From the UHGV virus genome UHGV-1944544: DNA of 10,740 bases. The stretch is one strand, 5' to 3'. The translations under genes were made by a program, and so were the position numbers. Below are positions 1 to 10,740 of the stretch, in pieces (the first letter of the stretch is position 1; each line of letters starts with the position of its first letter). The stretch comes from a virus. The notes beneath the pieces are model-generated. The model did not search any database. It had not been told where the DNA came from and saw only the letters and a program-made list of their open reading frames with translations.

Positions 1-60
1 GGATACTACATGCGCGCCGGGTTTGGCGTCGCGCTCCAGTTTTAACGGATAGGTAAACAT
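1..60 (-). CDS. hicB: HicB-family antitoxin, N-terminal fragment (gene continues past the window start)
   Basis: Minus-strand ATG at 60-58 translates to MFTYPLKLERDAKPGAHVVS, which fits the HicB N-terminal pattern (M-x-YP-[VL]...G...VS). It sits 30 bp downstream of hicA with an AGGAG Shine-Dalgarno about 7 nt before the ATG. Only 20 codons are visible. Confidence 0.55.
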   Translation of the reverse strand, partial: MFTYPLKLERDAKPGAHVVS

Positions 61-90
61 AGAGAAGCTCCTAGTGAAAAAGGCTGGGGC

Positions 91-273
91 TTAAAGCCCC
101 AGGTCCTTCATTATTTTCTTGCGTAGCGGTTCAGGCATTTCCTTTGAACCGTGGTCCGGGAAAACCGACCGCTTTCCGTTCAGGTTCACTTTCTGATGAC
201 TGCCGCCACCAGGCGCTTTCCTGAACTCTGCCCCTTGCTGGATTAACCAGCGTTTGAACTCTGAATACTTCAC
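91..273 (-). CDS. hicA: HicA-family mRNA interferase toxin (60 aa)
   Basis: Translation MKYSEFKRWLIQQGAEF...GSHQK...GKRSVFPDHG...EPLRKKIMKDLGL matches HicA hallmarks (MKxSEFxRWL, conserved His, RSV.P.H, EPLRK.I.K.LGL). GTG start at 273 with AAGGA about 5 nt upstream. Followed by the hicB fragment in the canonical hicA-then-hicB order. Confidence 0.85.
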   Translation of the reverse strand: MKYSEFKRWLIQQGAEFRKAPGGGSHQKVNLNGKRSVFPDHGSKEMPEPLRKKIMKDLGL

Positions 274-345
274 AAGTTTCCTTATGCAATTTATCCATCA
301 TGGGCGATAAGAATAGTAACACAAAAGATATAAAACACAACAAAA

Positions 346-359
346 ATGTTTATAAACAT
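346..359. promoter_or_regulatory. 14-bp perfect palindrome ATGTTTATAAACAT in the divergent region between hicA and the 506 gene; candidate operator
   Basis: Exact reverse-complement symmetry read from the sequence, about 73-86 bp upstream of the hicA start in AT-rich DNA. No convincing -35/-10 could be assigned; function is inferred. Confidence 0.25.
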
Positions 360-505
360 AACTTCCTTGTTTGGTGGTTGCGTTTTTGGAAAAGCATTTC
401 CGCATATGAAAAAACATCAGCATATGGTGAAAACAACGAAAAATTACTGATGAAATCACACACTGGATAAGCTGCCACGAAATCGGAAACCTTTTGCGGT
501 GAATC

Positions 506-2191
506 ATGGCAACGAAAGACAAAAACAAGGGCTTTCTGTCGGCATTGAAGAAAGCCTTCAGCGGTGGTGATGTTACGCCTGCCGATCCGGTCGTATTTGC
601 GAGCGGGCATAGCGTCGTTGCTCGTTCTGGCCTGTCCGCCTTGCGTCCTGGCATCCTGGGGAGCAATAGCGATGGCATGACAAGCGCGGCGGATACTGTA
701 TCTATATCGGCAGAATTACCGAGTGACCGCCTGCAAAAATACAACATACTGGAGACGATGGCGAAAAGCCCGACTATCTCCACAGCATTAAACATTCACA
801 TTGCGCATTCTCTGGCTCCATCAAAAAAAACAGGCCTCGCATTTATTCTCTCTCCGAAAAATGGGGCGGATAAGGAGGCTGTAAGTCGATGTGAGGAATT
901 GACCGCTGATTTAAGCTCAATGATTAATGATGGCCTGCCATCGTGGGCCATGATCATGGCTATTTTCGGTGTGTCGTATATCCGTCCATATGCAGAGCAA
1001 GGGAAGGGGATAACTGGAATTGAGTCGAGCTATTACACGCTCCCTCATTTCGTTCAGGAGTTTTATCGCGGTAGCCAACTTGTCGGATTCAGCGGTGATT
1101 ATATTCTGGATACGCATACTTTGCGCAGAGTTATAACCGAACCGTGGAATCTGGTTTCCATGAAAAACCCGTACTGGATGCCTCAGCATAAAGTAATGCC
1201 AGTAACTTACGGCACTAACGGCTATTCCTTGCTTAGTGAACAGCAGGACAAGCCGTTAATGGAGACGCAGAACTACGGTACGTCGTTTCTTGAATACAGT
1301 TATGAACCCTACCTGAATTTATGTGCCGCGCTTGCTGCGCTGAAAGCAACGCGAAACAACGCTGCAAAAATTGATCGCCTGATTGCACTCACAACGAACA
1401 CGATAGATCCGGTAAACGCGGCGAATTATACGCGCGGGGTCAGCCAGGCACTGAAGCGTCATAGCGACCTCGTAGCGCAACGGTCGATTAATTCTAATGC
1501 TCTCCCATCTGTACTTAACCATCTGATACCCGTCATGGGGGATGGGAAGAACGGGATCACCATTGATACGCAATCTATACCCGCAGATATCAGTGGTATC
1601 GAAGACGTTATGTTTCATCTCCGACAGCTCGCGGCAAGCCTCGGTATTGACGCAACAATGCTTGGCTGGGCTGATCAGATGAGTGGTGGACTTGGAGAAG
1701 GCGGTTGGCAGCAAACAGCTATCCAGGCCGCCTTACGCGCGAACTGGATCAGACAGGCCGCCCAGCGGACTATTTATCGGCTTCATGACATTCACCTCGC
1801 TTATAAATACGGGAAGGTTTACACCGAAAAAAACCGTCCTTATGACGTGCAATTCAACTCAATGAACACAGCTATCCAGGAAGAGGAAAACCGAGAGCTG
1901 GATGCGCGCGCCAACTTCGTAGCTGTCATCTCGCAAATAATGGACCAGATCCAGAACAACCCGAAACTGGCGGGTAGCGACGCGTTTATGCGTTATCTGT
2001 TCACCGAACAGCTTCGTATCGACGATGACACTCTCAACGTAATGATCAAAGAGTTTAAGGCGAATGAATCAGAGCAAAACAACGAGCATGGTATGTACGA
2101 ATCCGCGCCGTTGTCGTCCGGTGACGATCCGGAAAACTGGACGCAAGAACAATTAATCAACTTTGCAAAATTTGTGATGAGCAATAATTAA
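506..2191 (+). CDS. hypothetical protein (561 aa), first gene of a two-gene operon
   Basis: Long uninterrupted ORF from ATG 506 with a weak GGTGA Shine-Dalgarno. Its stop lies 13 bp before the next ATG. No Walker A or other catalytic motif recognised; the N-terminal ~80 aa are Gly/Ser/Ala-rich. A resemblance to phage portal proteins is speculative. Confidence 0.7.
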   Translation: MATKDKNKGFLSALKKAFSGGDVTPADPVVFASGHSVVARSGLSALRPGILGSNSDGMTSAADTVSISAELPSDRLQKYNILETMAKSPTISTALNIHIAHSLAPSKKTGLAFILSPKNGADKEAVSRCEELTADLSSMINDGLPSWAMIMAIFGVSYIRPYAEQGKGITGIESSYYTLPHFVQEFYRGSQLVGFSGDYILDTHTLRRVITEPWNLVSMKNPYWMPQHKVMPVTYGTNGYSLLSEQQDKPLMETQNYGTSFLEYSYEPYLNLCAALAALKATRNNAAKIDRLIALTTNTIDPVNAANYTRGVSQALKRHSDLVAQRSINSNALPSVLNHLIPVMGDGKNGITIDTQSIPADISGIEDVMFHLRQLAASLGIDATMLGWADQMSGGLGEGGWQQTAIQAALRANWIRQAAQRTIYRLHDIHLAYKYGKVYTEKNRPYDVQFNSMNTAIQEEENRELDARANFVAVISQIMDQIQNNPKLAGSDAFMRYLFTEQLRIDDDTLNVMIKEFKANESEQNNEHGMYESAPLSSGDDPENWTQEQLINFAKFVMSNN

Positions 2192-2204
2192 CCGGAGGGA
2201 AATA

Positions 2205-3203
2205 ATGCAATCACTGAATACCGTTACGGATCGCTTCTCCCTGGTAGAGAAAATCCGCAAACACACACCTCAGAACAATCGCAATTACGTTATCCAGTCG
2301 GTACGAGACACATTCAACTCGCCAGAAACAAAAGAGCGTATCGCACTGGGTGAGATGTATGGTTATTACGGTCATGGTCGCCGGGCGATGCACTATAACA
2401 AAACGAAAAGCCTGGACTTGCCGGAAGTCTCTGTTGTGATGGTAGATGGGAAGCCTGTTGTATTGGAGAACGTGCCGTCAAACAGGACTATCGACATTTC
2501 AATTGACGACAACGGCATTGTTACCCATACACAGGAAATACTGGATACGGACACCGGACGTATTGTTCAGGGTATGATTAATTCTGGCGCAGGTGGTTGG
2601 TCATGGGCTACATCTGGTCCAGATTACTCTGTATCCCTGGTAAAGTCTTTTCACGGTTTTGATTACGTAACAGTGCCTAACTATATCAGCCTCGACAAGA
2701 AAAGCCTGATGCTTGAATCAGCAGAAGAACGCGACGCGGCGATTCATGCGGCACTTATCGAACAAGGTTTTACCGATAATGCTGCTACGGATCTGGTTCA
2801 CCACTTTTCAGCAATGAAGAGTCAGCAAGCCATATTCGAATCAGCACAACGTGAAGTTCTGGAGTCGGAACTGATACATCTTGAAGTGGAAAATATGCAG
2901 CTTCGCGACAAACTACGCGACCAGGCCGCGATGATGGAAAGCCAGGGGGAGAACGCAAAGAAATCCCGCCGTATTTTGCGTGATGCTATCCAGGAAATGC
3001 CTGTTTTTATCAGCGCAGAACAGCGCCGGGCGCTCTGCCGTATGCAGTCAGAGGATGATGCACGCATTGTCGCAGCGATGCTTGAATCCCTGGGGGCTAA
3101 TGCCACTTATGGTCTGCCAATATCAGCCAATAAACAACAAGAAATACCGGTGAAAGAGAACAAGACGGTGACTCCGCTGATCTTTGTGTCTAAGAGGATG
3201 TGA
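2205..3203 (+). CDS. hypothetical protein (332 aa) with a predicted alpha-helical/coiled-coil C-terminal half
   Basis: ATG 2205 preceded by a strong GGAGGG Shine-Dalgarno (2194-2199). The C-terminal region (ESELIHLEVENMQLRDKLRDQAAMMESQ...) is heptad-like and charged. No family recognised. Confidence 0.75.
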   Translation: MQSLNTVTDRFSLVEKIRKHTPQNNRNYVIQSVRDTFNSPETKERIALGEMYGYYGHGRRAMHYNKTKSLDLPEVSVVMVDGKPVVLENVPSNRTIDISIDDNGIVTHTQEILDTDTGRIVQGMINSGAGGWSWATSGPDYSVSLVKSFHGFDYVTVPNYISLDKKSLMLESAEERDAAIHAALIEQGFTDNAATDLVHHFSAMKSQQAIFESAQREVLESELIHLEVENMQLRDKLRDQAAMMESQGENAKKSRRILRDAIQEMPVFISAEQRRALCRMQSEDDARIVAAMLESLGANATYGLPISANKQQEIPVKENKTVTPLIFVSKRM

Positions 3204-3316
3204 GCTAAAAGCTAGCTTAATTTTCTAACACAGTGTGTTTTTATACACTGTTGATCCGACGGCGCGTGATCGAGTAGGATCGCGGTCACTGCTCCGGTAG
3301 CGACTGCCAAAAAAGC

Positions 3317-3340
3317 AAAAGCCGCTGAGAAGCGGCTTTT
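3317..3340 (+). terminator. Rho-independent terminator downstream of the 506-3203 operon
   Basis: Perfect inverted repeat AAAAGCCGCT / AGCGGCTTTT around a GAGA tetraloop, with the GC core followed by TTTT. The flanking A-tract and T-tract make it potentially bidirectional. Confidence 0.55.
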
Positions 3341-3401
3341 GGGTGTATAAATCTCCGGACATAGATTTATACGGTAGATAGATTTTTCACGGTACTATCT
3401 G

Positions 3402-4361
3402 GTGAGTATTTTAAATTCAGTTTCAGTAACTTTCAACACTTCTGAGTATAAAAACAACACTGAATACCACAAAAAAATCAAAGGTCATCAGTTGAGTTTT
3501 TTTGCTCGTCATAGCGGTTTTCTTTCCCCTTCACATAGCGCCATTATTGCCGAGTTCGCCAACCTGGCAGGAGCTACCGATGAATACATGATCCGTCGCT
3601 CATATGCTGATATGTCCGAGATTACAGGACGCAGTATTTCTACTGTGCGCCGGGCATTTACCGAAGCGACGAAGTGCGGAATGCTTGTTAAGCAGCATCA
3701 GGTAGCGAATAACAATGCTCAGGTGTGTAACGTGTACCGGTTTACAACACAATTTCTCCACTTCATTCATGTAGCAATGGAGATAGGGAGTAAGCAGGGC
3801 ATCAAATTTGCCAACGCCACAAAACTGGTTAAGCAGTTGATTTCAAAGGTTCGTTATTTTTTTGAAACTGGGAACCCCCTGTTCAAATTGAACAAGTCCC
3901 CCCATGTTCAAAATGAACAGCCAATAGAAAATAAGAGTCACTCTATAGCCAAAAGAAGAGAAAGATCATGCGCGGTTCAGCCAAAGGCTTCACCAGCAGA
4001 TAGTTCTCAAGCGGATAATGGCTTGCTGGATAAAAAAACAGTAATCAGGGAAGAACATACCAACCACTGCCTGGCGGCAGCAAAAGCGAGAGCTGCAAAG
4101 CGTCGTTCAGACGAGGGGTACGCAAAACGGCAGGCTCTGTATCGTACCGCTGAAAAACTGGCAAAAAAATTTGCATGGTTACGTAGTGCTACCACAGTGA
4201 ATAAGCCCAAACGATCCAGCGCCCTGGATTTCTCTATGGATTATTCTGCTTCCCAGGGATGTGCAACCATCAATGAAGCATTTGACCTGATGAAACAGCG
4301 TGGCTATCGGTCTGAATTTGACCGGGAAGACTGGTCAATTCCGGAGGGCTTTCGGGGATGA
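3402..4361 (+). CDS. helix-turn-helix DNA-binding protein, possibly a replication initiator or regulator; N-terminus uncertain
   Basis: ORF of 319 aa from GTG 3402 with no Shine-Dalgarno. The first in-frame ATG is at 3588, where the nearest AGGAG is 15 nt upstream. HTH-like segment MSEITGRSISTVRRAFTEATKCGMLV, then a basic Lys/Arg-rich C-terminal half. The AT-rich 5' part contains direct repeats. Confidence 0.55.
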   Translation: MSILNSVSVTFNTSEYKNNTEYHKKIKGHQLSFFARHSGFLSPSHSAIIAEFANLAGATDEYMIRRSYADMSEITGRSISTVRRAFTEATKCGMLVKQHQVANNNAQVCNVYRFTTQFLHFIHVAMEIGSKQGIKFANATKLVKQLISKVRYFFETGNPLFKLNKSPHVQNEQPIENKSHSIAKRRERSCAVQPKASPADSSQADNGLLDKKTVIREEHTNHCLAAAKARAAKRRSDEGYAKRQALYRTAEKLAKKFAWLRSATTVNKPKRSSALDFSMDYSASQGCATINEAFDLMKQRGYRSEFDREDWSIPEGFRG

Positions 4362-4501
4362 TGTTGCGATTGACTGTACAATAACCGTGCGGCGGGAATT
4401 TCATCGCTCTAAAATGTATGTTAGAAAATTAAATTGATGTTTCTAATCAAGAATGTATGATTTATATCGTCACTAAAAAACAGCATCTGATAAAAATTCT
4501 G

Positions 4502-4530
4502 TTGATCTTTCTAATGTTCAGGCTTATATT
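4502..4530 (+). promoter_or_regulatory. Candidate sigma70 promoter (-35 TTGATC, 17-bp spacer, -10 TATATT)
   Basis: Hexamers read at 4502-4507 and 4525-4530. It lies about 250 bp upstream of the 4778 ORF and rha, and precedes the alternative-hairpin region at 4581-4620. Confidence 0.3.
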
Positions 4531-4777
4531 CATGCCGTCGTAGCAAATTCTGCGACCGGGTTTAGCAGCCTGAATGTTAGTGCGGACAACCGCAGATATC
4601 CGATATTGCGGTATTTTTGTGTCCGTAAAACCGCGTTACGCCCAAATTATGGTGGGGCGTGATGGGGAGGCTTCGGCCTGCTGGTTTCACTAACGCCAGT
4701 CTGCTAACCCCGTCACGTCCTGCCACCTGTTTAGCAGCGGGTAGCAGGTTGTTAAACCTGTTAGTGAGGCCGTAACT

Positions 4778-5002
4778 ATGGTTAATGCCAATCCTTGCTC
4801 ACGTCCAGAATTCATCTGGCGTTTTCACTCCCTGCAAAAACACTGCGATCACTTCGCAATTGCCGCAACTGAAAAAGAAGCCCGTTCTCTGATCCCGGAT
4901 CAGTATGGCGTTCTCACTGGTCGTTTCTCTACTTCCCCACAACCAAACACCAATCCCTGGTATCGCAATATTACCAATCCCGGCATTGTGGAGGCTCACT
5001 GA
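4778..5002 (+). CDS. hypothetical small protein (74 aa), translationally coupled to the Rha gene
   Basis: ATG 4778 with GAGG 8 nt upstream. Its TGA stop overlaps the rha ATG (TGATG at 5000-5004). No family recognised. Confidence 0.45.
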   Translation: MVNANPCSRPEFIWRFHSLQKHCDHFAIAATEKEARSLIPDQYGVLTGRFSTSPQPNTNPWYRNITNPGIVEAH

Positions 5003-5943
5003 TGGATATCTGCATTCTCGAAAAGCCATCAATGACAAGCATTGAGATCGCGGAGCTGGTGGGAAAACGTCATGACAATGTGAAACGCACTATTGAGACA
5101 TTAGCCAAAGGTGGCGTTATTGTTCGTCCTCAAATTGAGGTTTTCGAAAAAATCAATAACTTAGGACTACGACGTAGTGTTGAGGCTTACGTCTTCGAAG
5201 GCGAGCAAGGCAAGCGCGATAGCATTATCGTCGTCGCGCAGCTCTCTCCCGAATTCACCGCCCGGCTGGTGGACCGCTGGCGCGAACTGGAGAATGCCCG
5301 GGTACAGTTAAAATCAAAAGCCGAAATCCTGGCCGAAATGGCGCAAATGCATCTTGAGCATGAACGCCGGATCAACGCCGTTAATGCCCAGGTAGCCGAA
5401 GTATCCGCACAAGTGTCCAAAGTCGCTGAAACCGTCGAGCAGATCAAGAAAGGCAATATTCCGGAAGGCTACATTGGCTATCGCCAGTTGGCGGCAAAAT
5501 GCGGCCTGACTGAAGCCAAATGCCGCAACCTGGTCAACGCTTACCGGATACCCACTGATACGCATGAGTTTTTGACGCCAGAGGGGGTATTGTCGCGTCG
5601 TACTATTGTGGCCTTATCTCCCTTCATGAATGCCTTTACCCTGATGATGTCGGAGGCTGAACACCGAGGAAAACGCTGGTATCATCCCAGGATGGGGCTA
5701 TTTCAGGCCATTCACCATCCTGTGCCTGAAAGTCCAAAGGCAAACCTGTCGTTGCATACCGCCAGAGAGAAGATTAAAACAGGGTATGCAACCGTATGCC
5801 GTCGAGCATCCTGGCCTGAAAGTGTCTGGGTATGGCCCGAAAGAGGCTCACGGAAAAACTGGCGCACCATTCGCGACGGCAAGATCTGTGCGATTGATTT
5901 ACAGCCAGAAGATGTAGCAGCGACCGACTGGATTGTTAGTTAA
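5002..5943 (+). CDS. Rha-family phage regulatory protein (313 aa)
   Basis: N-terminal SIEIAELVGKRHDNVKRTIE matches the Rha-domain signature (...AE.FGKRHDNV.R.I...). GGAGG Shine-Dalgarno 8 nt upstream of ATG 5002. Confidence 0.8.
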   Translation: MDICILEKPSMTSIEIAELVGKRHDNVKRTIETLAKGGVIVRPQIEVFEKINNLGLRRSVEAYVFEGEQGKRDSIIVVAQLSPEFTARLVDRWRELENARVQLKSKAEILAEMAQMHLEHERRINAVNAQVAEVSAQVSKVAETVEQIKKGNIPEGYIGYRQLAAKCGLTEAKCRNLVNAYRIPTDTHEFLTPEGVLSRRTIVALSPFMNAFTLMMSEAEHRGKRWYHPRMGLFQAIHHPVPESPKANLSLHTAREKIKTGYATVCRRASWPESVWVWPERGSRKNWRTIRDGKICAIDLQPEDVAATDWIVS

Positions 5944-5950
5944 TAGATTT

Positions 5951-5972
5951 GCCCCGGTCATGCCGGGGCTTT
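5951..5972 (+). terminator. Rho-independent terminator after rha
   Basis: GCCCCGG / CCGGGGC 7-bp GC-rich stem with loop TCATG, followed by only TTT, so the U-tract is short. Confidence 0.45.
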
Positions 5973-5999
5973 AACTACTAAGTGACCGGACACAGCAAA

Positions 6000-6320
6000 A
6001 TGTATGCCACGAAAAAAATTGATTTCACTTATTCTTCCGCCACAATTGAGCGGCGCTTCACCCTCATTAGAGAGTTGGAACTGTCAAAAGTCTGGTATCA
6101 AATTCTACTGGATGAAGAGTTCTCACTGATGATAATGGCTGAAAAAGAAGCAATGCCGAATGACCGGCATAAAGTCATTGCCAGCCTTGACCTGGTGACA
6201 AACAGATACTGGGAGACAGAGGAACTGCGTGAAGCGGGAGTAATTCGTGACCTGATGGAGAGTTCCGTTCCCCGCCGCTATCGTGCGGGAAACGAAATCT
6301 CCGTGATTAAAGGGGCTTAA
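6000..6320 (+). CDS. hypothetical protein (106 aa from ATG 6000; the ORF opens at GTG 5982)
   Basis: Open frame with a weak ribosome-binding site, starting only 10-28 bp after the rha terminator. Its TAA stop overlaps the stop of the convergent minus-strand gene. The call as a real gene is uncertain. Confidence 0.4.
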   Translation: MYATKKIDFTYSSATIERRFTLIRELELSKVWYQILLDEEFSLMIMAEKEAMPNDRHKVIASLDLVTNRYWETEELREAGVIRDLMESSVPRRYRAGNEISVIKGA

Positions 6321-6709
6321 AGCTCACCAGCACGCTGTTTTTCAAGCGTAGATTTAACATTGGGCGCTTTCCCTTTAAAAGAATGGAAAGTGCCACATTT
6401 TTCTGTTTTAACCTCGCGCAGAGCTTCGCCATCGGCGTTCTGCCATTGATGAGATAACGTCATATCACCGCGAGAAGGAACATCCAGCGAGTACAACGTG
6501 TAAGTTCCCCCCATCTCGGCATACTCCTGGAACACATAGCTCATTACGTCAGATTCAGTTTTCCGGTGCGCGTTATCGACCTTATTCCCATTCAGAAATA
6601 TGGCGTTCGGATAGATTTTTATATCAAACCTACCGCACTTCACTTGTAAATTCCCGGCGTGAGCGATCAAAGGGAAAGCTGCCAATAAAGCAATAGCTAA
6701 TCTTTTCAA
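6317..6709 (-). CDS. secreted (periplasmic) protein with Sec signal peptide, 130 aa
   Basis: TTG start at 6709 with GGAGG 6 nt upstream. N-terminus MKRLAIALLAAFPLIAHA-GN is a classic signal peptide with an AxA cleavage site. Mature part has two Cys (VKCGRF, TEKCGTF). Lies 20 bp downstream of the preceding gene. Confidence 0.7.
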   Translation of the reverse strand: MKRLAIALLAAFPLIAHAGNLQVKCGRFDIKIYPNAIFLNGNKVDNAHRKTESDVMSYVFQEYAEMGGTYTLYSLDVPSRGDMTLSHQWQNADGEALREVKTEKCGTFHSFKGKAPNVKSTLEKQRAGEL

Positions 6710-6729
6710 TTCTGCCTCCGCTGCGTAAC

Positions 6730-7350
6730 TTATTGCCCGTATTGTTTACACCATTGCTCTGCCATTTGTGGGGCTAAAGGCCCAGCCACTGCGCTGTATT
6801 CTGCTGTTTTGCTTTGCACGCATGAGGCAGATGGTTTTTTATTGCGCTGTTCCTTGAGTTGTTTTTCATAGGCAACGATGGCATCGAAACCAGCTACATC
6901 TTCCTCCCTCATGAACCCTTTCTTGATCAGAAACTGCTGACCTTCCGGCACCAATGCTAGAGCATACAACGGCTGCAACAGCTCCCCCAATCCTTCCCGG
7001 CTATAAACTTGAAACTGCATCCAGCTTTTACTTAACGCTGTCATAGTGTCTTTGGTGGAATAGCCAGCCTTGCGTATAGCCTTGTCTAATCGATCTGCTG
7101 AATACGCAAACAAACAGAAATCGCCCTTTCCTGTAAACCCCGGTTCAACCGGTTGCAACGTGATATTTTCTTTTTCGCAAAAGTCTATAAATTCATCAGG
7201 TCTATCGGTTTTATAGTCCCGCAATACCTTCAGTCCAGCCTCATACTTTGCAGGTAACGCGCCTGCATAGGCAGCATTAAGAGAAACTCCCCCCAATATA
7301 ACCGCGAGCACTGCTCCCAAAACCCTTAACTTCACAAAACCATCCTTCAT
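6730..7350 (-). CDS. secreted (periplasmic) protein with Sec signal peptide, about 207 aa
   Basis: Start placed at the internal ATG (7350-7348), which yields MKDGFVKLRVLGAVLAVILGGVSLNAAYA-G, a signal peptide. The 47 codons upstream in the track ORF are Phe-rich, AT-driven and look non-coding. Mature part has four Cys. Confidence 0.65.
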   Translation of the reverse strand: MKDGFVKLRVLGAVLAVILGGVSLNAAYAGALPAKYEAGLKVLRDYKTDRPDEFIDFCEKENITLQPVEPGFTGKGDFCLFAYSADRLDKAIRKAGYSTKDTMTALSKSWMQFQVYSREGLGELLQPLYALALVPEGQQFLIKKGFMREEDVAGFDAIVAYEKQLKEQRNKKPSASCVQSKTAEYSAVAGPLAPQMAEQWCKQYGQ

Positions 7351-7564
7351 GTAAAAAAACTGAAGTTTTATGTTACAAAAGCAAACATCTACGCCAAAAT
7401 GACCTAGGCCAAATTCAGCGCGAATAAAAAATTCAAAAAAATTGTTGACACTATTCTGGAAATCACAATCTGGACAAAATCCATTACGCAAACGGCTCCC
7501 GTTGAAGGTTCTTTTGACGACTAACTTTCAGCCGATGCGCGGTAGGGAGTCATAACGCCAAAGC

Positions 7565-7589
7565 AGGCCGCCATGTGCGGCCTTTTTTT
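7565..7589 (+). terminator. Strong intrinsic-terminator-like hairpin in the leader of the 7616 gene
   Basis: AGGCCGC / GCGGCCT 7-bp stem with loop CATGT, followed by seven T. Plus-oriented, ending 26 bp before ATG 7616, with no plus-strand gene immediately upstream. Confidence 0.6.
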
Positions 7590-7615
7590 GTGCCTGCTAT
7601 CGTGGAGTAAAAGCC

Positions 7616-8269
7616 ATGCAAAAGATCGCAATATTCAGCCTTTCTACTAACAAGCCGCTGATGGCTACAGCAGTCCTGAAAGACGGCGCGCTTGTAATTG
7701 ACAAAGTAAAGCCGCTCCCTGCATCTGCTATTGAACAAAAACGAAAAATTCCACCAGTAATTGCCGAGCTGCGTAAAAGTGAATTTAAGGTGCTGGTTGA
7801 CGAAATCACGCCAACCATTTCAGCCGGTACAGGTGCCAGCCAGGTAACATTAAAAACACGGCACGCCGACGGCAGAGCAGCGATCATTGTCGGCATGGAG
7901 AGATACCGGGAGCTGAAACTACAAAGGCTGCTATCCCTGCCTGACAAGAACAAAGGGGCATTTGAGATCCCCGACTCTATCGTCGATACCGAATACAACG
8001 GCAACGGTGAAGAGGTTTATCGAGTTAACTGGCAAGATATCCGACCAGAGCACATCCTGATGATTCTGTGCTGCTATGCAACGGTATACCACAATGTTGC
8101 CAGCGCGGATTACCTGAAACAAATGACAGGAGCGGTAGAGAAAGAAAACAAAGCAGGGATAATGGCCTCGTTCCTGTCCATTATCAGCGATCAAAAAGCT
8201 AAAGCAGGAAATACCCAACCAAAATCGCTGGCCGGGCAAGTAATTGATGAAGATACGGTGATACTTTAA
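7616..8269 (+). CDS. hypothetical protein (217 aa)
   Basis: ATG 7616 with GGAG 8 nt upstream. No signal peptide, no transmembrane segment and no recognised motif. Confidence 0.7.
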   Translation: MQKIAIFSLSTNKPLMATAVLKDGALVIDKVKPLPASAIEQKRKIPPVIAELRKSEFKVLVDEITPTISAGTGASQVTLKTRHADGRAAIIVGMERYRELKLQRLLSLPDKNKGAFEIPDSIVDTEYNGNGEEVYRVNWQDIRPEHILMILCCYATVYHNVASADYLKQMTGAVEKENKAGIMASFLSIISDQKAKAGNTQPKSLAGQVIDEDTVIL

Positions 8270-8541
8270 TCAACTCAGTAGCTTTGTTAACTCCCTTAAT
8301 ACCAGGTAGAAGAGTAACAAAAATACTAACGCCAGTATTTGCGTGGTCAACGAGGCGTTCATAAACAGAACAATTAGCTTTAACAATTCGAGAATAACGT
8401 CCATGTCATTCACACTATTTAATTTTTAATCTACAGCCAGCAAACAATGAAGCTGCCCCCCGCATAAAGATTAATGAAAGTCACTTGTTGACAGTCAATA
8501 AATTCAGTGCGGCGAAGAAACTCTGTCTATACGGATAGTGC

Positions 8542-8579
8542 TTGCATTTTGCCCTTTCCGCGTGTAGTGTGTATACACA
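8542..8579 (+). promoter_or_regulatory. Putative higBA promoter with a 12-bp palindromic operator (TGTGTATACACA)
   Basis: Perfect palindrome at 8568-8579 overlapping a candidate -10 (TATACA, 8572-8577), with -35 TTGCCC at 8549-8554 (17-bp spacer); an alternative pairing is TTGCAT 8542-8547 with TAGTGT 8565-8570. It lies 26-37 bp upstream of the higB start. Confidence 0.4.
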
Positions 8580-8604
8580 AGTCACGCACACGGATGGAAT
8601 TATT

Positions 8605-8886
8605 TTGATTAAGTCATTTCGCCATAAGGGGCTTGAACGCTTTTTCAAGACAGGTTCAACCGCAGGCATTCAGACCAAACATGCGGTTAAGCTACGCATT
8701 CAATTGACTGCTCTTAATACAGCTAAACGCCCGGACGATATGTCTGCGCCTGGATGGGAATTACACCCACTAAAGGGGGCGGACCTTAAAGGTCACTGGG
8801 CAATATCGGTAAACGGTAACTGGCGACTTACCTTCCGATTTGAAGGAGAAGACGCAATTCTAGTTGACTATCAGGATTATCATTGA
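8605..8886 (+). CDS. higB: HigB toxin (RelE/ParE superfamily, plasmid-maintenance-killer type), about 93 aa
   Basis: From TTG 8605 the product reads (M)[13 protein letters not shown]...[41 protein letters not shown], matching the HigB signature (MIKSFxHKGL ... HPLKGD..G.W.I.V..NWR.TF.F...DA.I..Y.DYH). GGATGGA Shine-Dalgarno at 8592-8598. The track ORF opens earlier, at TTG 8542. Confidence 0.85.
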
Positions 8887-8894
8887 GGAACACT

Positions 8895-9176
8895 ATGAGT
8901 CGTATGCATAATCCCGCGCATCCAGGCGCGGTTCTTCGTGAATATTTGGGAGACATGTCAGTCACAGACGCAGCTGCTGCATTAGGCATTACTCGCACGG
9001 CACTTTCCCGAATTCTGAACGAAAAAACAGGTATTTCTGCTGATATGGCACTTCGTCTGGAGTCCGCTCTTGGAACCAGTGCCGAAATGTGGACCGGTAT
9101 GCAATCCCAGTATGAGCTTTGGGTTGCTTCGCAAACCGCTCGCCCAAACATCCGTCCATTATTTTCCCACGCATAA
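8895..9176 (+). CDS. higA: HigA antitoxin (XRE-type HTH), about 93 aa
   Basis: From ATG 8895 the product reads [18 protein letters not shown]...[37 protein letters not shown], matching the HigA family (MHNP.HPG ... S...L.GK.GIS..MALRL...GTS.E.W). GAGG Shine-Dalgarno 6 nt upstream; the start is 8 bp after the higB stop. Confidence 0.85.
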
Positions 9177-9181
9177 TTTTA

Positions 9182-9213
9182 CAGCGTCACCAGGCCAGGT
9201 GACGCTGCTTTCC
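9182..9213 (+). terminator. Candidate terminator after higA
   Basis: Perfect 9-bp stem CAGCGTCAC / GTGACGCTG with an 8-nt loop, followed by CTTTCC, a weak U-tract. Confidence 0.4.
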
Positions 9214-9268
9214 CGCATTTCACACCCTGCATACAGTTCCCCACAGGTTATGACTGTGAGGAACTGTT

Positions 9269-9598
9269 ATGAGTTACAGCAGACTCGACGATCGATGCAT
9301 TGAAGACGATGTGCTGCGCGCACTATTCCATCAGGAGATGATCAAGCGGGTATCGGAGTATCACTCCGATAATTTCCAGTACACGATAAAAATTGATGAG
9401 GTTTATCGCTCAGACCTAGCGGCCTATCGCGCCTATGGCAACGCTGATTTGCGCTGGGTATTTCGCGTGCTGGTGGGCCATGAGTCAGAAATGGAAGAAA
9501 TGCCGGTAGGGACAACGTTAACTCTTCCTGACGCAGCATGGCTAAGAAACAAGATTCGCGATTACGCTGGCTCGGCACCGGAGATAGAAAATGCCTGA
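9269..9598 (+). CDS. hypothetical protein (109 aa); C-terminal part tentatively LysM-like / phage tail-protein-X-like
   Basis: ATG 9269 with GAGGAA 5 nt upstream. The C-terminal segment (YRSDLAAYRAYGNADL...MPVGTTLTLPD) resembles the tail-protein-X pattern as recalled from memory, unverified. Its stop overlaps the start of the next gene (ATGCCTGA). Confidence 0.6.
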   Translation: MSYSRLDDRCIEDDVLRALFHQEMIKRVSEYHSDNFQYTIKIDEVYRSDLAAYRAYGNADLRWVFRVLVGHESEMEEMPVGTTLTLPDAAWLRNKIRDYAGSAPEIENA

Positions 9599-10740
9599 CT
9601 TCCAGAAAAATCAGGACGGGCGATATATCACTGACGGCCTGTCCTCTAAGGATTTCACACGCGTATTTGAACTCATCAGGAAAGAGCAAAACCGCAAACG
9701 CCGCCAGGCGCACAGGACACTCACGCCGGGCAGGCTTAGGAATAAATCAGCCGAAGACATTCTTAAGCTGGGGAAAAAGAAAGGCGGCACGTTCTTTACG
9801 CGTGACGATCTGAAAGGCTTCGAAAAGCTGCGAAGCAAAGCACGCGAAAAATATGACAGCAAGACGGCTGGCATTACATACGCACAACTGGTAGCGTCCA
9901 GCCAGGCTATCGATATTAAGCGAGCAAATAACGCCGTAGACGACGGTTCTGGTATCAAAAGAGCTACGCCCGTATCTCTTCGTCACAATGTGATTAATAT
10001 CCGCGTGGAAGCGTCCGATATATCCGTTCACCAGCACCACATTGTCCGGGTACGTTTTGAAGAATGGGATCAGATAGTCGATGACATCGCAGAAGACGAT
10101 AAATCAGCCCTGAAAGTCACAAAATCACTGTGTGCCGGGCGAGTGTCTTTCGACTGTGACTGCGGTCGCCATCAATACTGGTATCGCTACATCGCCACTG
10201 CGGGTAACTTTGCCCTGGCCCCGCCAAAAGAATACGCCTATCCAAAAGTTCGCAACCCTAAGCTGCAAGGCGTCGCCTGTAAACATGTGATCCACTCAAT
10301 GACACGACTACAGTCTGCCAGTTGGCAGATGAGTATTGCTCGCGCCCTGCAAAAAGCTGCAACGCAAGTTGCCTTTGGTGACGATCGCCGCCGCACGACA
10401 AAACACTTCACAAAAGAAGACGAGAAGGCGTTCAATCGAAACCGTAGCAGCAAAACGAATGTTGAGGCAGCTAAACGTGAATGGAAGCTCTATCAGAAAC
10501 GCCAGGCCGCTTTAAGCTCAAAACTGGCAAAGGACAACGGTAAGATCGACAAGCTGCGCGACCAACTGACCAGGGCCAGAAAGTTATCCGACGCACAGAA
10601 AAAACGGGCAGCGGCAAAAGAAGCTGCTTTGCAACGGGAGAAGCAGAAAAACAAGGAACTTCAGCAACGCCTTGCTGATCAGTTCGCACTGAAGAAGCAG
10701 GCGTTCATTGATGCGCTTGTTATGGCAGGAACACCACCAG
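9591..10740 (+). CDS. large hypothetical protein, partial (at least 383 aa, continues past the window end), with a CxC...CxH putative zinc-binding motif and a basic coiled-coil region
   Basis: Frame translated by hand from ATG 9591 to the window end with no stop codon; GGAG lies 7 nt upstream. Cys cluster FDCDCGRH...(38 aa)...CKHVIH encoded at 10155-10295. From about 10390 onward the sequence is Lys/Arg/Gln/Ala-rich and heptad-like. Absent from the supplied track because it has no in-window stop. Confidence 0.7.
   Translation, partial: MPDFQKNQDGRYITDGLSSKDFTRVFELIRKEQNRKRRQAHRTLTPGRLRNKSAEDILKLGKKKGGTFFTRDDLKGFEKLRSKAREKYDSKTAGITYAQLVASSQAIDIKRANNAVDDGSGIKRATPVSLRHNVINIRVEASDISVHQHHIVRVRFEEWDQIVDDIAEDDKSALKVTKSLCAGRVSFDCDCGRHQYWYRYIATAGNFALAPPKEYAYPKVRNPKLQGVACKHVIHSMTRLQSASWQMSIARALQKAATQVAFGDDRRRTTKHFTKEDEKAFNRNRSSKTNVEAAKREWKLYQKRQAALSSKLAKDNGKIDKLRDQLTRARKLSDAQKKRAAAKEAALQREKQKNKELQQRLADQFALKKQAFIDALVMAGTPP

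Follow-up and report, generated by a model that had tools for sequence, protein, structure and literature searches.

A probable D6-like phage-plasmid segment in UHGV-1944544, with two toxin–antitoxin cassettes and a mosaic antirepressor gene

What kind of element places two toxin–antitoxin (TA) modules and a phage regulator among genes that, read from the letters alone, carry no familiar names? The question is raised by a stretch of 10,740 nucleotides from the virus genome UHGV-1944544, called here the window. The original prediction was a defence or anti-defence island, or a prophage remnant, of the integrative kind, whose integrase and att sites would lie just outside. The comparisons described below point instead to the backbone of an extrachromosomal element: the window is very probably a segment of ~10.7 kb of a D6-like phage-plasmid of the P1 family. 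Members of that family are temperate myoviruses, and their Escherichia, Shigella and Salmonella hosts maintain them as circular plasmids of low copy number. On this assignment an integrase or att site is not needed, because the element would replicate as a plasmid. In the annotation of D6, the sole tyrosine recombinase is a Cre-like enzyme acting at the rox site ('lox in P1'), and the same annotation lists stbAB, cre/rox and, with a question mark, repA.

The assignment rests first on DNA identity. By megablast, window positions 2-5707 are 98.7% identical to NZ_LR890273.1 and positions 5129-10740 are 97.7% identical to NZ_AP027414.1, and phage D6 itself is 88.6% identical over 453-5707. The closest plasmids are circular, non-mobilizable E. 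coli replicons of 89-94 kb; NZ_LR890273.1 and NZ_AP027414.1, both of which were inspected, are annotated as circular plasmids, and the RefSeq names given to their genes include portal, head-processing protein, lytic replication protein, Icd-like protein, Rha family regulator, phage tail protein and HigBA. The claim of a mobile element of phage origin is therefore upheld, by DNA identity to D6-like plasmid prophages. Within each half of the window, the D6 annotation gives the same genes in the same order, and the RefSeq names of the two plasmids, wherever a gene is named, are in agreement with it. Comparison with D6 by tblastn yields 75-99% amino acid identity for prt, pro, repL, icd, ant, pmgF, mat, 26 and 25, and remote tblastn matches to P1 and P7 are found for RepL, Icd, PmgF and Mat.

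How, then, could such a region be taken for one with at least seven genes lacking recognisable function? Apart from the TA and Rha genes there are ten open reading frames, and eight of them are recognisable P1/D6 backbone genes; only two, at 6317-6709 and 6730-7350, remain without a function. The supposed cargo is mostly essential phage machinery in conserved synteny, including the P1-type virion genes prt, pro, 25 and 26. For prt, pro, pmgF, mat and genes 25 and 26, PHROGs and tblastn comparison with D6, P1 and P7 supplied the identities; Pfam and NCBIfam have no match for these genes, or for the two orphans, which are predicted secreted proteins. A phage-plasmid backbone can read as an 'island of unknowns' from raw sequence alone, and the combination of a C4 RNA, a P1-type portal and RepL offers a quick diagnostic that no integrase is to be expected.

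The left half begins with head genes on the + strand. The portal gene prt (506-2191; 561 amino acids) matches phrog_1497 (portal, E=1.8e-225) and is 94% identical in amino acid sequence to D6 orf22 ('similar to P1 prt'). The head-processing protease gene pro (2205-3203, +; 332 amino acids) is 92% identical to D6 orf21 ('head processing protease, similar to P1 pro') and bears the RefSeq name 'head processing protein'; its PHROG label, 'tail fiber', conflicts with both annotations and is probably a mislabel. The lytic replication initiator gene repL follows (3402-4361, +; 319 amino acids), with 95% identity to D6 orf20, 31% to P7 RepL (E=3e-28) and a precomputed match to PF26868 (Phage_P1_RepL). 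In the right half, pmgF (6000-6320, +; 106 amino acids), a homologue with a putative morphogenetic function, is 79% identical to D6 orf81 ('similar to P1 pmgF') and 40% to P7 upf52.1, and matches phrog_7349. The maturation control protein gene mat (7616-8269, +; 217 amino acids) is 85% identical to D6 orf78 and 33% to P1 Mat (E=3e-36). The homologue of P1 gene 26, a baseplate gene (9269-9598, +; 109 amino acids), is 92% identical to D6 orf75 ('similar to P1 gene 26') and matches phrog_1269 (baseplate wedge). The homologue of P1 gene 25, a tail protein gene (9591 to beyond 10740, +), is 96% identical to D6 orf74 (phrog_1722, E=1e-192); the window holds 383 of its 401 codons, and the full 401-amino-acid gene is present in L004, a metagenome contig described below.

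Could the region nevertheless belong to a chromosome, as a defence or anti-defence island or as what is left of a decayed prophage, with novel cargo between its TA modules? It does have TA modules and variable slots, the slots of relatives hold a dCTP deaminase gene, mat is followed by res/mod in P1, and two cargo genes are without an assigned function. The location of the matches argues otherwise. All 16 matches to the hicA module among the 5,426 complete E. coli genomes searched lie on plasmids. Whole-window megablast matches occur in 615 PLSDB plasmids and in 864 records from 799 complete E. coli genomes; within these genomes they fall at 798 plasmid places as against 295 chromosomal ones, and the 15 top-listed records are all plasmids of 89-96 kb with conserved phage synteny. 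The eight named cargo genes are structural, replication or immunity genes of phages. Syntenic orthologues of named function are conserved at the level of the phage-plasmid family and not for the E. coli chromosome. The window contains no tRNA gene that might flank an insertion, and its ten non-TA proteins gave only two insignificant matches to the PADLOC hidden Markov models (HMMs), at E ~0.004-0.006. No integrase was in view when the region was first read, and none emerges from Pfam, PHROG or NCBIfam, where the proteins of the window match neither an integrase nor a transposase. A chromosomal island of this kind is highly improbable.

Several observations weigh against a D6-like phage-plasmid and are best stated together. 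The plasmid status is deduced from relatives, and the source contig, of ~23 kb, is from a low-coverage metagenome assembly. Genes for plasmid maintenance (repA/par or stb, Cre-lox-type resolution) would be located beyond both the window and a contig of this size, and c1, pacAB and lpa are absent from the window. No record in INPHARED, PLSDB or the 5,426 complete E. coli genomes covers at least 80% of the window, and none of them shows repL-c4-icd-ant-pmgF in adjacency. The consensus of the P1 C1 operator, ATTGCTCTAATAAATTT, has no match in the window with up to three mismatches. Any function proposed for pmgF, for mat or for the pair of secreted proteins is putative.

Where does the Rha regulator belong in a phage-plasmid? 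The Rha domain seen at first reading is confirmed, and its bearer can now be named as the antirepressor Ant of an immI immunity locus. The ant gene (5002-5943, +; 313 amino acids) matches Pfam Phage_pRha (E=1.2e-8) and phrog_63, 'anti-repressor Ant' (E=2e-64). P7 ant has no tblastn match to it, and by its sequence the window Ant is a Rha/Roi-type protein and not a P1 Ant1/Ant2. Upstream lies icd (4778-5002, +), which encodes a cell-division inhibitor of 74 amino acids and serves as leader open reading frame; it matches NCBIfam phage_ICD_like (NF033153, E=3e-10) and is 99% identical to D6 orf19 and 59% to P7 Icd. The icd stop overlaps the ant start in the sequence TGATG at 5000-5004. The c4/icd stretch from 4502 to 4889 has ~90-92% DNA identity to P1, P7 and related phages.

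The long AT-rich intergenic regions of the original prediction exist in part. Two of them, 274-505 and 8270-8604, are AT-rich relative to a window average of 47.6% GC, but the longest gap, the 416 bp between repL and icd (4362-4777), has 44.5% GC and is filled by RNA elements found with Rfam. The a1/b1 targets of C4 RNA are at 4524-4576 on the + strand (RF03163, 53.9 bits, E=1.4e-11), with TTAGCAG at 4562 and GTTAGTG at 4576. The C4 antisense RNA itself is at 4645-4730 (+; RF01695, 70 bits against a gathering score of 45, E=2.4e-12, full length 1-87), and its loops carry CACTAAC (4688) and CTGCTAA (4701), complementary to the a and b heptamers. A second set of targets, a2/b2 (4731-4766, +), was read from the sequence as TTAGCAG at 4731-4737 and GTTAGTG at 4760-4766; the b2 motif abuts the icd Shine-Dalgarno sequence (GAGG) and lies 12 nt before the ATG at 4778. 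The roles of a2 and b2 are assigned by analogy with P1 immI.

If the locus works as it does in P1, a candidate C1-controlled promoter region would give rise to one transcript with a1/b1, C4 RNA, a2/b2, icd and ant. Processed C4 RNA would then pair with a2/b2 at the icd ribosome-binding site; the pairing would block icd translation and would keep transcription from reaching ant. Ant, once expressed, may inactivate the C1 repressor and thereby lead to lytic growth. Both C4 repression of ant and Ant antagonism of C1 are thus modelled on P1.

Is there a candidate for the C1 operator? A 15-bp motif, RTGTTAGAAAAYTAA, has two exact matches in the window against 0.08 expected. One, read as GTGTTAGAAAATTAA at 3217-3231 on the - strand, is upstream of repL; the other, at 4418-4432 on the + strand, is upstream of the immI operon, in a position equivalent to Op51/Oc4 of P1. 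In D6, RTGTTAGAAAAYTAA recurs upstream of c1, lpa, repL, c4, ref, pmgS, the simB-like gene, pdcB and cre; its D6 positions include 198, 4631, 10318, 21263 and 22466. In P1 and P7 the c4-upstream position bears an annotated C1 operator, and their records annotate C1 operators upstream of ref, mat, c4 and repL; P1 also has C1 operators upstream of c1 and lpa. The motif is accordingly put forward, from its sequence and positions, as a candidate D6-type C1 operator. In a scan for sigma-70 promoters and terminators, promoter-like sites were fewer than chance alone would give, and the scan carries no weight in the argument.

If the two halves each follow D6, why do they stand side by side? D6-like elements have two immunity loci. 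Site A reads prt-pro-repL-c4-icd-ant(235 amino acids)-orf17-CHAP-darB, and site B reads ref-(isrK-like RNA)-c4'-icd'-ant(313 amino acids)-pmgF...mat-26-25. In all 15 elements that hold both, the sites are 37-54 kb apart, in direct orientation and with canonical flanks. The window passes from the left flank of site A into the right flank of site B, and does so inside the paralogous ant genes. The absence of a repL-c4-icd-ant-pmgF adjacency from complete records implies that contiguity of the two halves is atypical for the family; nor does any record in the collections searched cover at least 80% of 3900-6700.

Two side observations concern the paralogous loci. The immI region of site B (4823-4901 and 4946-5033 of reference sequence L003) has its own C4 RNA (Rfam, 77 bits), which is preceded by a match to the isrK family of Hfq-binding small RNAs (61 bits) instead of by the a1b1 model. 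The 65-amino-acid orf17 of site A (13712-13909 of reference sequence L001) has 33-45% amino acid identity to the C-terminal ~80 residues of the 313-amino-acid Ant of site B (window 5686-5943), which implies that site A carries a split version of the same gene.

The course of the switch was followed with diagnostic-site maps of ant, made with nine site-A and four site-B references. The gene is of type A at 4988-5229, shared over the 62 bp of 5230-5291, B-like at 5292-5421, shared over the 158 bp of 5422-5579, again of type A at 5580-5670, shared over 14 bp at 5671-5684, where the final change from A to B takes place, and of type B from 5685 onward. The B-like segment at 5292-5421 is also present in the site-A allele of CP173462, so that, on the diagnostic-site map, a single A-to-B switch within 14 bp suffices to explain the window.

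Where else is the join seen? The exact hybrid Ant is present in two contigs (JGI/IMG and ENA). The ENA contig, L004 (ERZ1758143, NODE_1108; 23.2 kb, 4.7x), shares this join and departs from the window sequence at seven positions; five of the seven fall within window 12-53, at the hicB start, a pattern typical of contig-end noise or of a strain-variant branch. In two further contigs, L021 (Logan, SRR22499987) and L022 (ENA ERZ783162), A-type c4/icd is joined to B-type ant 3' end and pmgF, with the switch at 5230-5291; L021 is 98.35% identical over window 4455-7614. All of these are short-read contigs from metagenomes or the Sequence Read Archive (SRA), the only kind of record in which the join is seen. 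Among the best 80 Ant loci in IMG/VR the fused locus does not occur, 19 being canonical site A and ~22 canonical site B. An exact 80-mer over the last ant switch has no match in IMG/VR or the JGI metagenome contigs, which implies that the window's own contig is not in these collections. The ten genomes with an identical HicA all have a canonical site A.

Did recombination between the directly repeated ant paralogues, the one by repL at site A and the other by ref at site B, fuse repL and immI(A) to pmgF, mat and the tail genes? We give a real join of this type an even chance. On the canonical circle such an event would excise ~37-43 kb, and with it c1, pacAB, lpa, cre/rox, phd/doc and darB. 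By the D6 map, repA/stb, repL, most of the virion genes and the two TA cassettes would stay behind on a plasmid of ~50-54 kb, which would represent either a phage-plasmid in transition to an ordinary plasmid or a rearranged lineage. The last switch lies in 14 bp of identity when compared with all nine A and four B references, which is below the k-mers usual in assemblers. L004 repeats the join with its seven differences, and L021 and L022, from other datasets, have another crossover, at 5230-5291. Conversion of site B to the A allele was considered and set aside as unlikely: the A- and B-type immI regions have no DNA homology upstream of 4988, so a site B that merely acquired an A-type immI allele is hard to generate. 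There is also precedent, as P1-like phage-plasmids are documented to become plasmids through gene loss (PMC10879196). Against a real join, none of the complete plasmids, genomes and phages searched contains it, nor do the best 80 IMG/VR loci. Moreover, L021 and L022 begin downstream of repL and leave the upstream context out, the window and L004 are near-identical and may stem from the same reads, and the deletion product would be without repressor, terminase and late activator.

Alternatively, the join could have been made by an assembler. Given a canonical D6-like plasmid, or several strains, it may have crossed from site A to site B through the shared ant stretches, an explanation that falls somewhat short of an even chance. 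The switch is inside a repeated gene pair with identical stretches of 62 bp and 158 bp, and the four joined contigs are without exception short-read metagenome or SRA assemblies of low coverage (4.7x and 2.5x from SPAdes names). The 15 elements with both sites, all of canonical arrangement, speak for the same explanation. The ant paralogues are naturally mosaic, and an as yet unseen site-B allele with an A-like patch at 5580-5670 would lengthen the repeat. An assembly chimera is harder to reconcile with the 14 bp of identity that known alleles leave at the final switch, and with the same kind of join in three datasets, produced by different assembly software and including a Logan contig. Logan contigs are not known to run on through repeat branches that stay unresolved.

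Should the join be real, a further step would be that the fused repL-immI-ant(A/B)-pmgF marks a circulating D6-like derivative of ~50 kb, which has shed c1, terminase, lpa and cre, keeps repA/stb, repL, most virion genes and the two TA cassettes, and whose two secreted orphans may form a new module for exclusion. This composite proposal is tentative, and its truth rather doubtful. If it is true, phage-plasmids of this group possess an inbuilt and repeatedly used path towards plasmids, or towards helper-dependent elements, seen in at least three metagenome or SRA datasets and with two crossover points. A genuine ant–ant fusion would make the duplicated immI loci a built-in switch for a genome-halving deletion, which bears on how phage-plasmids decay into plasmids.

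What of the two TA modules that first gave the region the look of an island? Their status as accessory cassettes in variable slots holds: they are rare, and relatives have other genes in their place. The hicAB pair is only in part within the window. The toxin gene hicA (91-273, -; 60 amino acids) matches Pfam PF07927 (HicA_toxin, E=1.3e-9) and phrog_353, and constitutes an accessory module in the ddrB-prt slot. The start of hicB lies 30 nt downstream of hicA, and only the first 20 codons of this antitoxin gene are included (position 60 to beyond position 1, -); their translation, MFTYPLKLERDAKPGAHVVS..., aligns with the N-terminus of the 143-amino-acid HicB of reference sequence L007, for which PF15970 (HicB-like_2) is precomputed. 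The hicA module is present in 16 of the complete E. coli genomes. An identical HicA in ten genomes is located between ddrB and prt, on contigs of ~70-93 kb with DarA, DarB, LydB and tail-fibre genes; D6 has orf23 and orf24 in place of hicAB. The AT-rich region at 274-505 (232 bp, 34.5% GC) separates the divergent hicA and prt genes and is a TnpB/insertion sequence (IS) target in relatives. In plasmids of the CP085065 and CP056699 types, this gap is broken by a TnpB element of IS200/IS605 type; matches of the CP085065 type break off at window 264 and begin again at 451, and the intervening plasmid DNA has an annotated TnpB gene.

The higBA pair is complete and has Pfam support, as expected from the first reading. 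It follows mat after an AT-rich gap of 335 bp (8270-8604, 39.7% GC). The toxin gene higB (8605-8886, +), of the RelE fold and with a TTG start, matches PF05015 (HigB-like_toxin, E=1.3e-20) and is so annotated by RefSeq in AP027414; the antitoxin gene higA (8895-9176, +) encodes a helix-turn-helix (HTH) protein matching PF01381 (HTH_3, E=1.7e-10) and phrog_1381, and is annotated as HigA in AP027414. The higBA cassette, 8489-9208, replaces 52 bp of LR890273-type plasmids, and at a cover of at least 80% it is found in 10 of the complete E. coli genomes. No complete genome has this hicAB and this higBA together. By analogy with P1 phd/doc, both pairs would act through post-segregational killing, and plasmid addiction is their most likely role; they may also protect against other phages.

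Between pmgF and mat lies a slot in which D6 has orf80 and the simB-like orf79, and the window has the two orphan genes. Both are on the - strand, and the window counts three strand switches, where multiple ones had been remarked. The first gene (6317-6709) encodes a protein of 130 amino acids, predicted to be all-beta, with the predicted signal peptide MKRLAIALLAAFPLIAHA|G. The second (6730-7350) encodes ~206 amino acids, predicted to be all-helical, with a start at 7350, 7335 or 7491 and a predicted signal peptide ending in ...LGGVSLNAAYA|G. Both proteins have predicted Sec-type signal peptides and conserved cysteines. The family of the 130-amino-acid protein comprises 11 clusters only, and that of the 206-amino-acid protein seven clusters at 90% identity. 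An HMM search with the latter family in 1.84 billion representatives yielded 21 small relatives, all of them lacking a significant Pfam domain, and sequence, HMM and fold searches with both proteins gave nothing useful.

Are these proteins related to the genes whose slot they occupy? The 206-amino-acid protein shares with D6 SimB-like orf79 only the upstream DNA and a signal peptide of 15 amino acids. The conserved leader, window 7351-7491, aligns with D6 72092-72278 (26092-26278 of reference sequence L006), and the mature parts are unrelated; a conserved leader followed by an unrelated mature part points to cassettes having been swapped behind a constant leader for expression and secretion. 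Apart from this shared signal peptide, homology to P1 SimABC and to D6 orf79 and orf80 was rejected: the P1 sim region has no tblastn match to either secreted protein, and SimC aligned with the 206-amino-acid protein in hhalign at a probability of 0.3%.

The two proteins might still be a prophage module for superinfection exclusion or envelope modification, similar in position and compartment to P1 Sim and to the SimB-like protein of D6. Several traits are consistent with such a role: the slot is that of D6 orf79 and orf80, the larger protein has the upstream DNA and signal peptide of orf79 though not its mature part, both proteins are predicted to be exported and have conserved cysteines, their genes run opposite to the flanking pmgF and mat, as morons often do, and both families are confined to P1/D6-like contigs. 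The lack of sequence or profile similarity to P1 SimA, SimB and SimC counts against it, as does the moderate confidence of the AlphaFold 2 (AF2) models. On balance an exclusion module appears unlikely, and the two proteins, predicted to be periplasmic, are listed as candidates for lysogenic conversion or superinfection exclusion. As a separate observation, NZ_CP122809.1 (reference sequence L023, 1417-3409) has a three-gene insert between pmgF and the gene for the 130-amino-acid protein, encoding proteins of 101 and 357 amino acids and a dCTP deaminase; it is likely a defence cassette in the pmgF-mat slot. The pmgF-mat and mat-26 slots are points of exchange, and relatives carry defence-type genes there. 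The original impression of interchangeable cargo among conserved genes holds at the level of moron slots within a phage-plasmid.

How does the window compare with systems already known? D6 (MF356679/NC_050154) and D6-like prophages such as pYU39_89, NZ_LR890273.1 and NZ_AP027414.1 have in common with it the orders prt-pro-repL-c4-icd-ant and ant-pmgF-[slot]-mat-[slot]-26-25. For the D6-like group, a second immI locus and addiction modules of higBA type have already been described, in a plasmid prophage with an ImmI region, a second c4/icd region, higA-higB and a simB homologue (PMC6799933). Unlike D6 and its complete relatives, in which they are 37-54 kb apart, the two halves are contiguous in the window. 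The window ant is an A/B hybrid, hicAB stands in place of D6 orf23 and orf24, two unrelated secreted proteins stand in place of D6 orf80 and the simB-like gene, and higBA is between mat and gene 26, whereas the TA genes of D6 are beyond gene 25.

With the immI locus of P1 and P7, the window has in common the C4 RNA and its a/b targets, the icd leader overlapping the antirepressor start, and an operator-like site upstream of c4. It differs from P1 and P7 in that repL is upstream of c4, not downstream, and the sim genes are not adjacent; it differs from P1 immI in that the antirepressor is of Rha/Roi type and the P1 C1 operator consensus is absent. RepL is homologous to that of the L-replicon (kilA-repL) of P1 and P7, but the window is without kilA.

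Type II TA systems are found on plasmid prophages, as P1 phd/doc, HicAB and HigBA. The pairs in the window conform to this type, being two-gene, toxin-first modules with HicA and HigB/RelE toxin domains and an HTH in HigA. D6 already uses TA addiction through phd/doc, and the TA families of the window differ from phd/doc. Lastly, temperate phages have hot spots for morons and defence genes, such as res-mod by mat in P1 and those of P2 and P4. Other than the TA pairs, the cassettes of the window match no PADLOC defence family, unlike the contents of phage defence hot spots, but the likeness in layout is plain: flanks of the type found in the window, pmgF...mat...26, bracket interchangeable cassettes.

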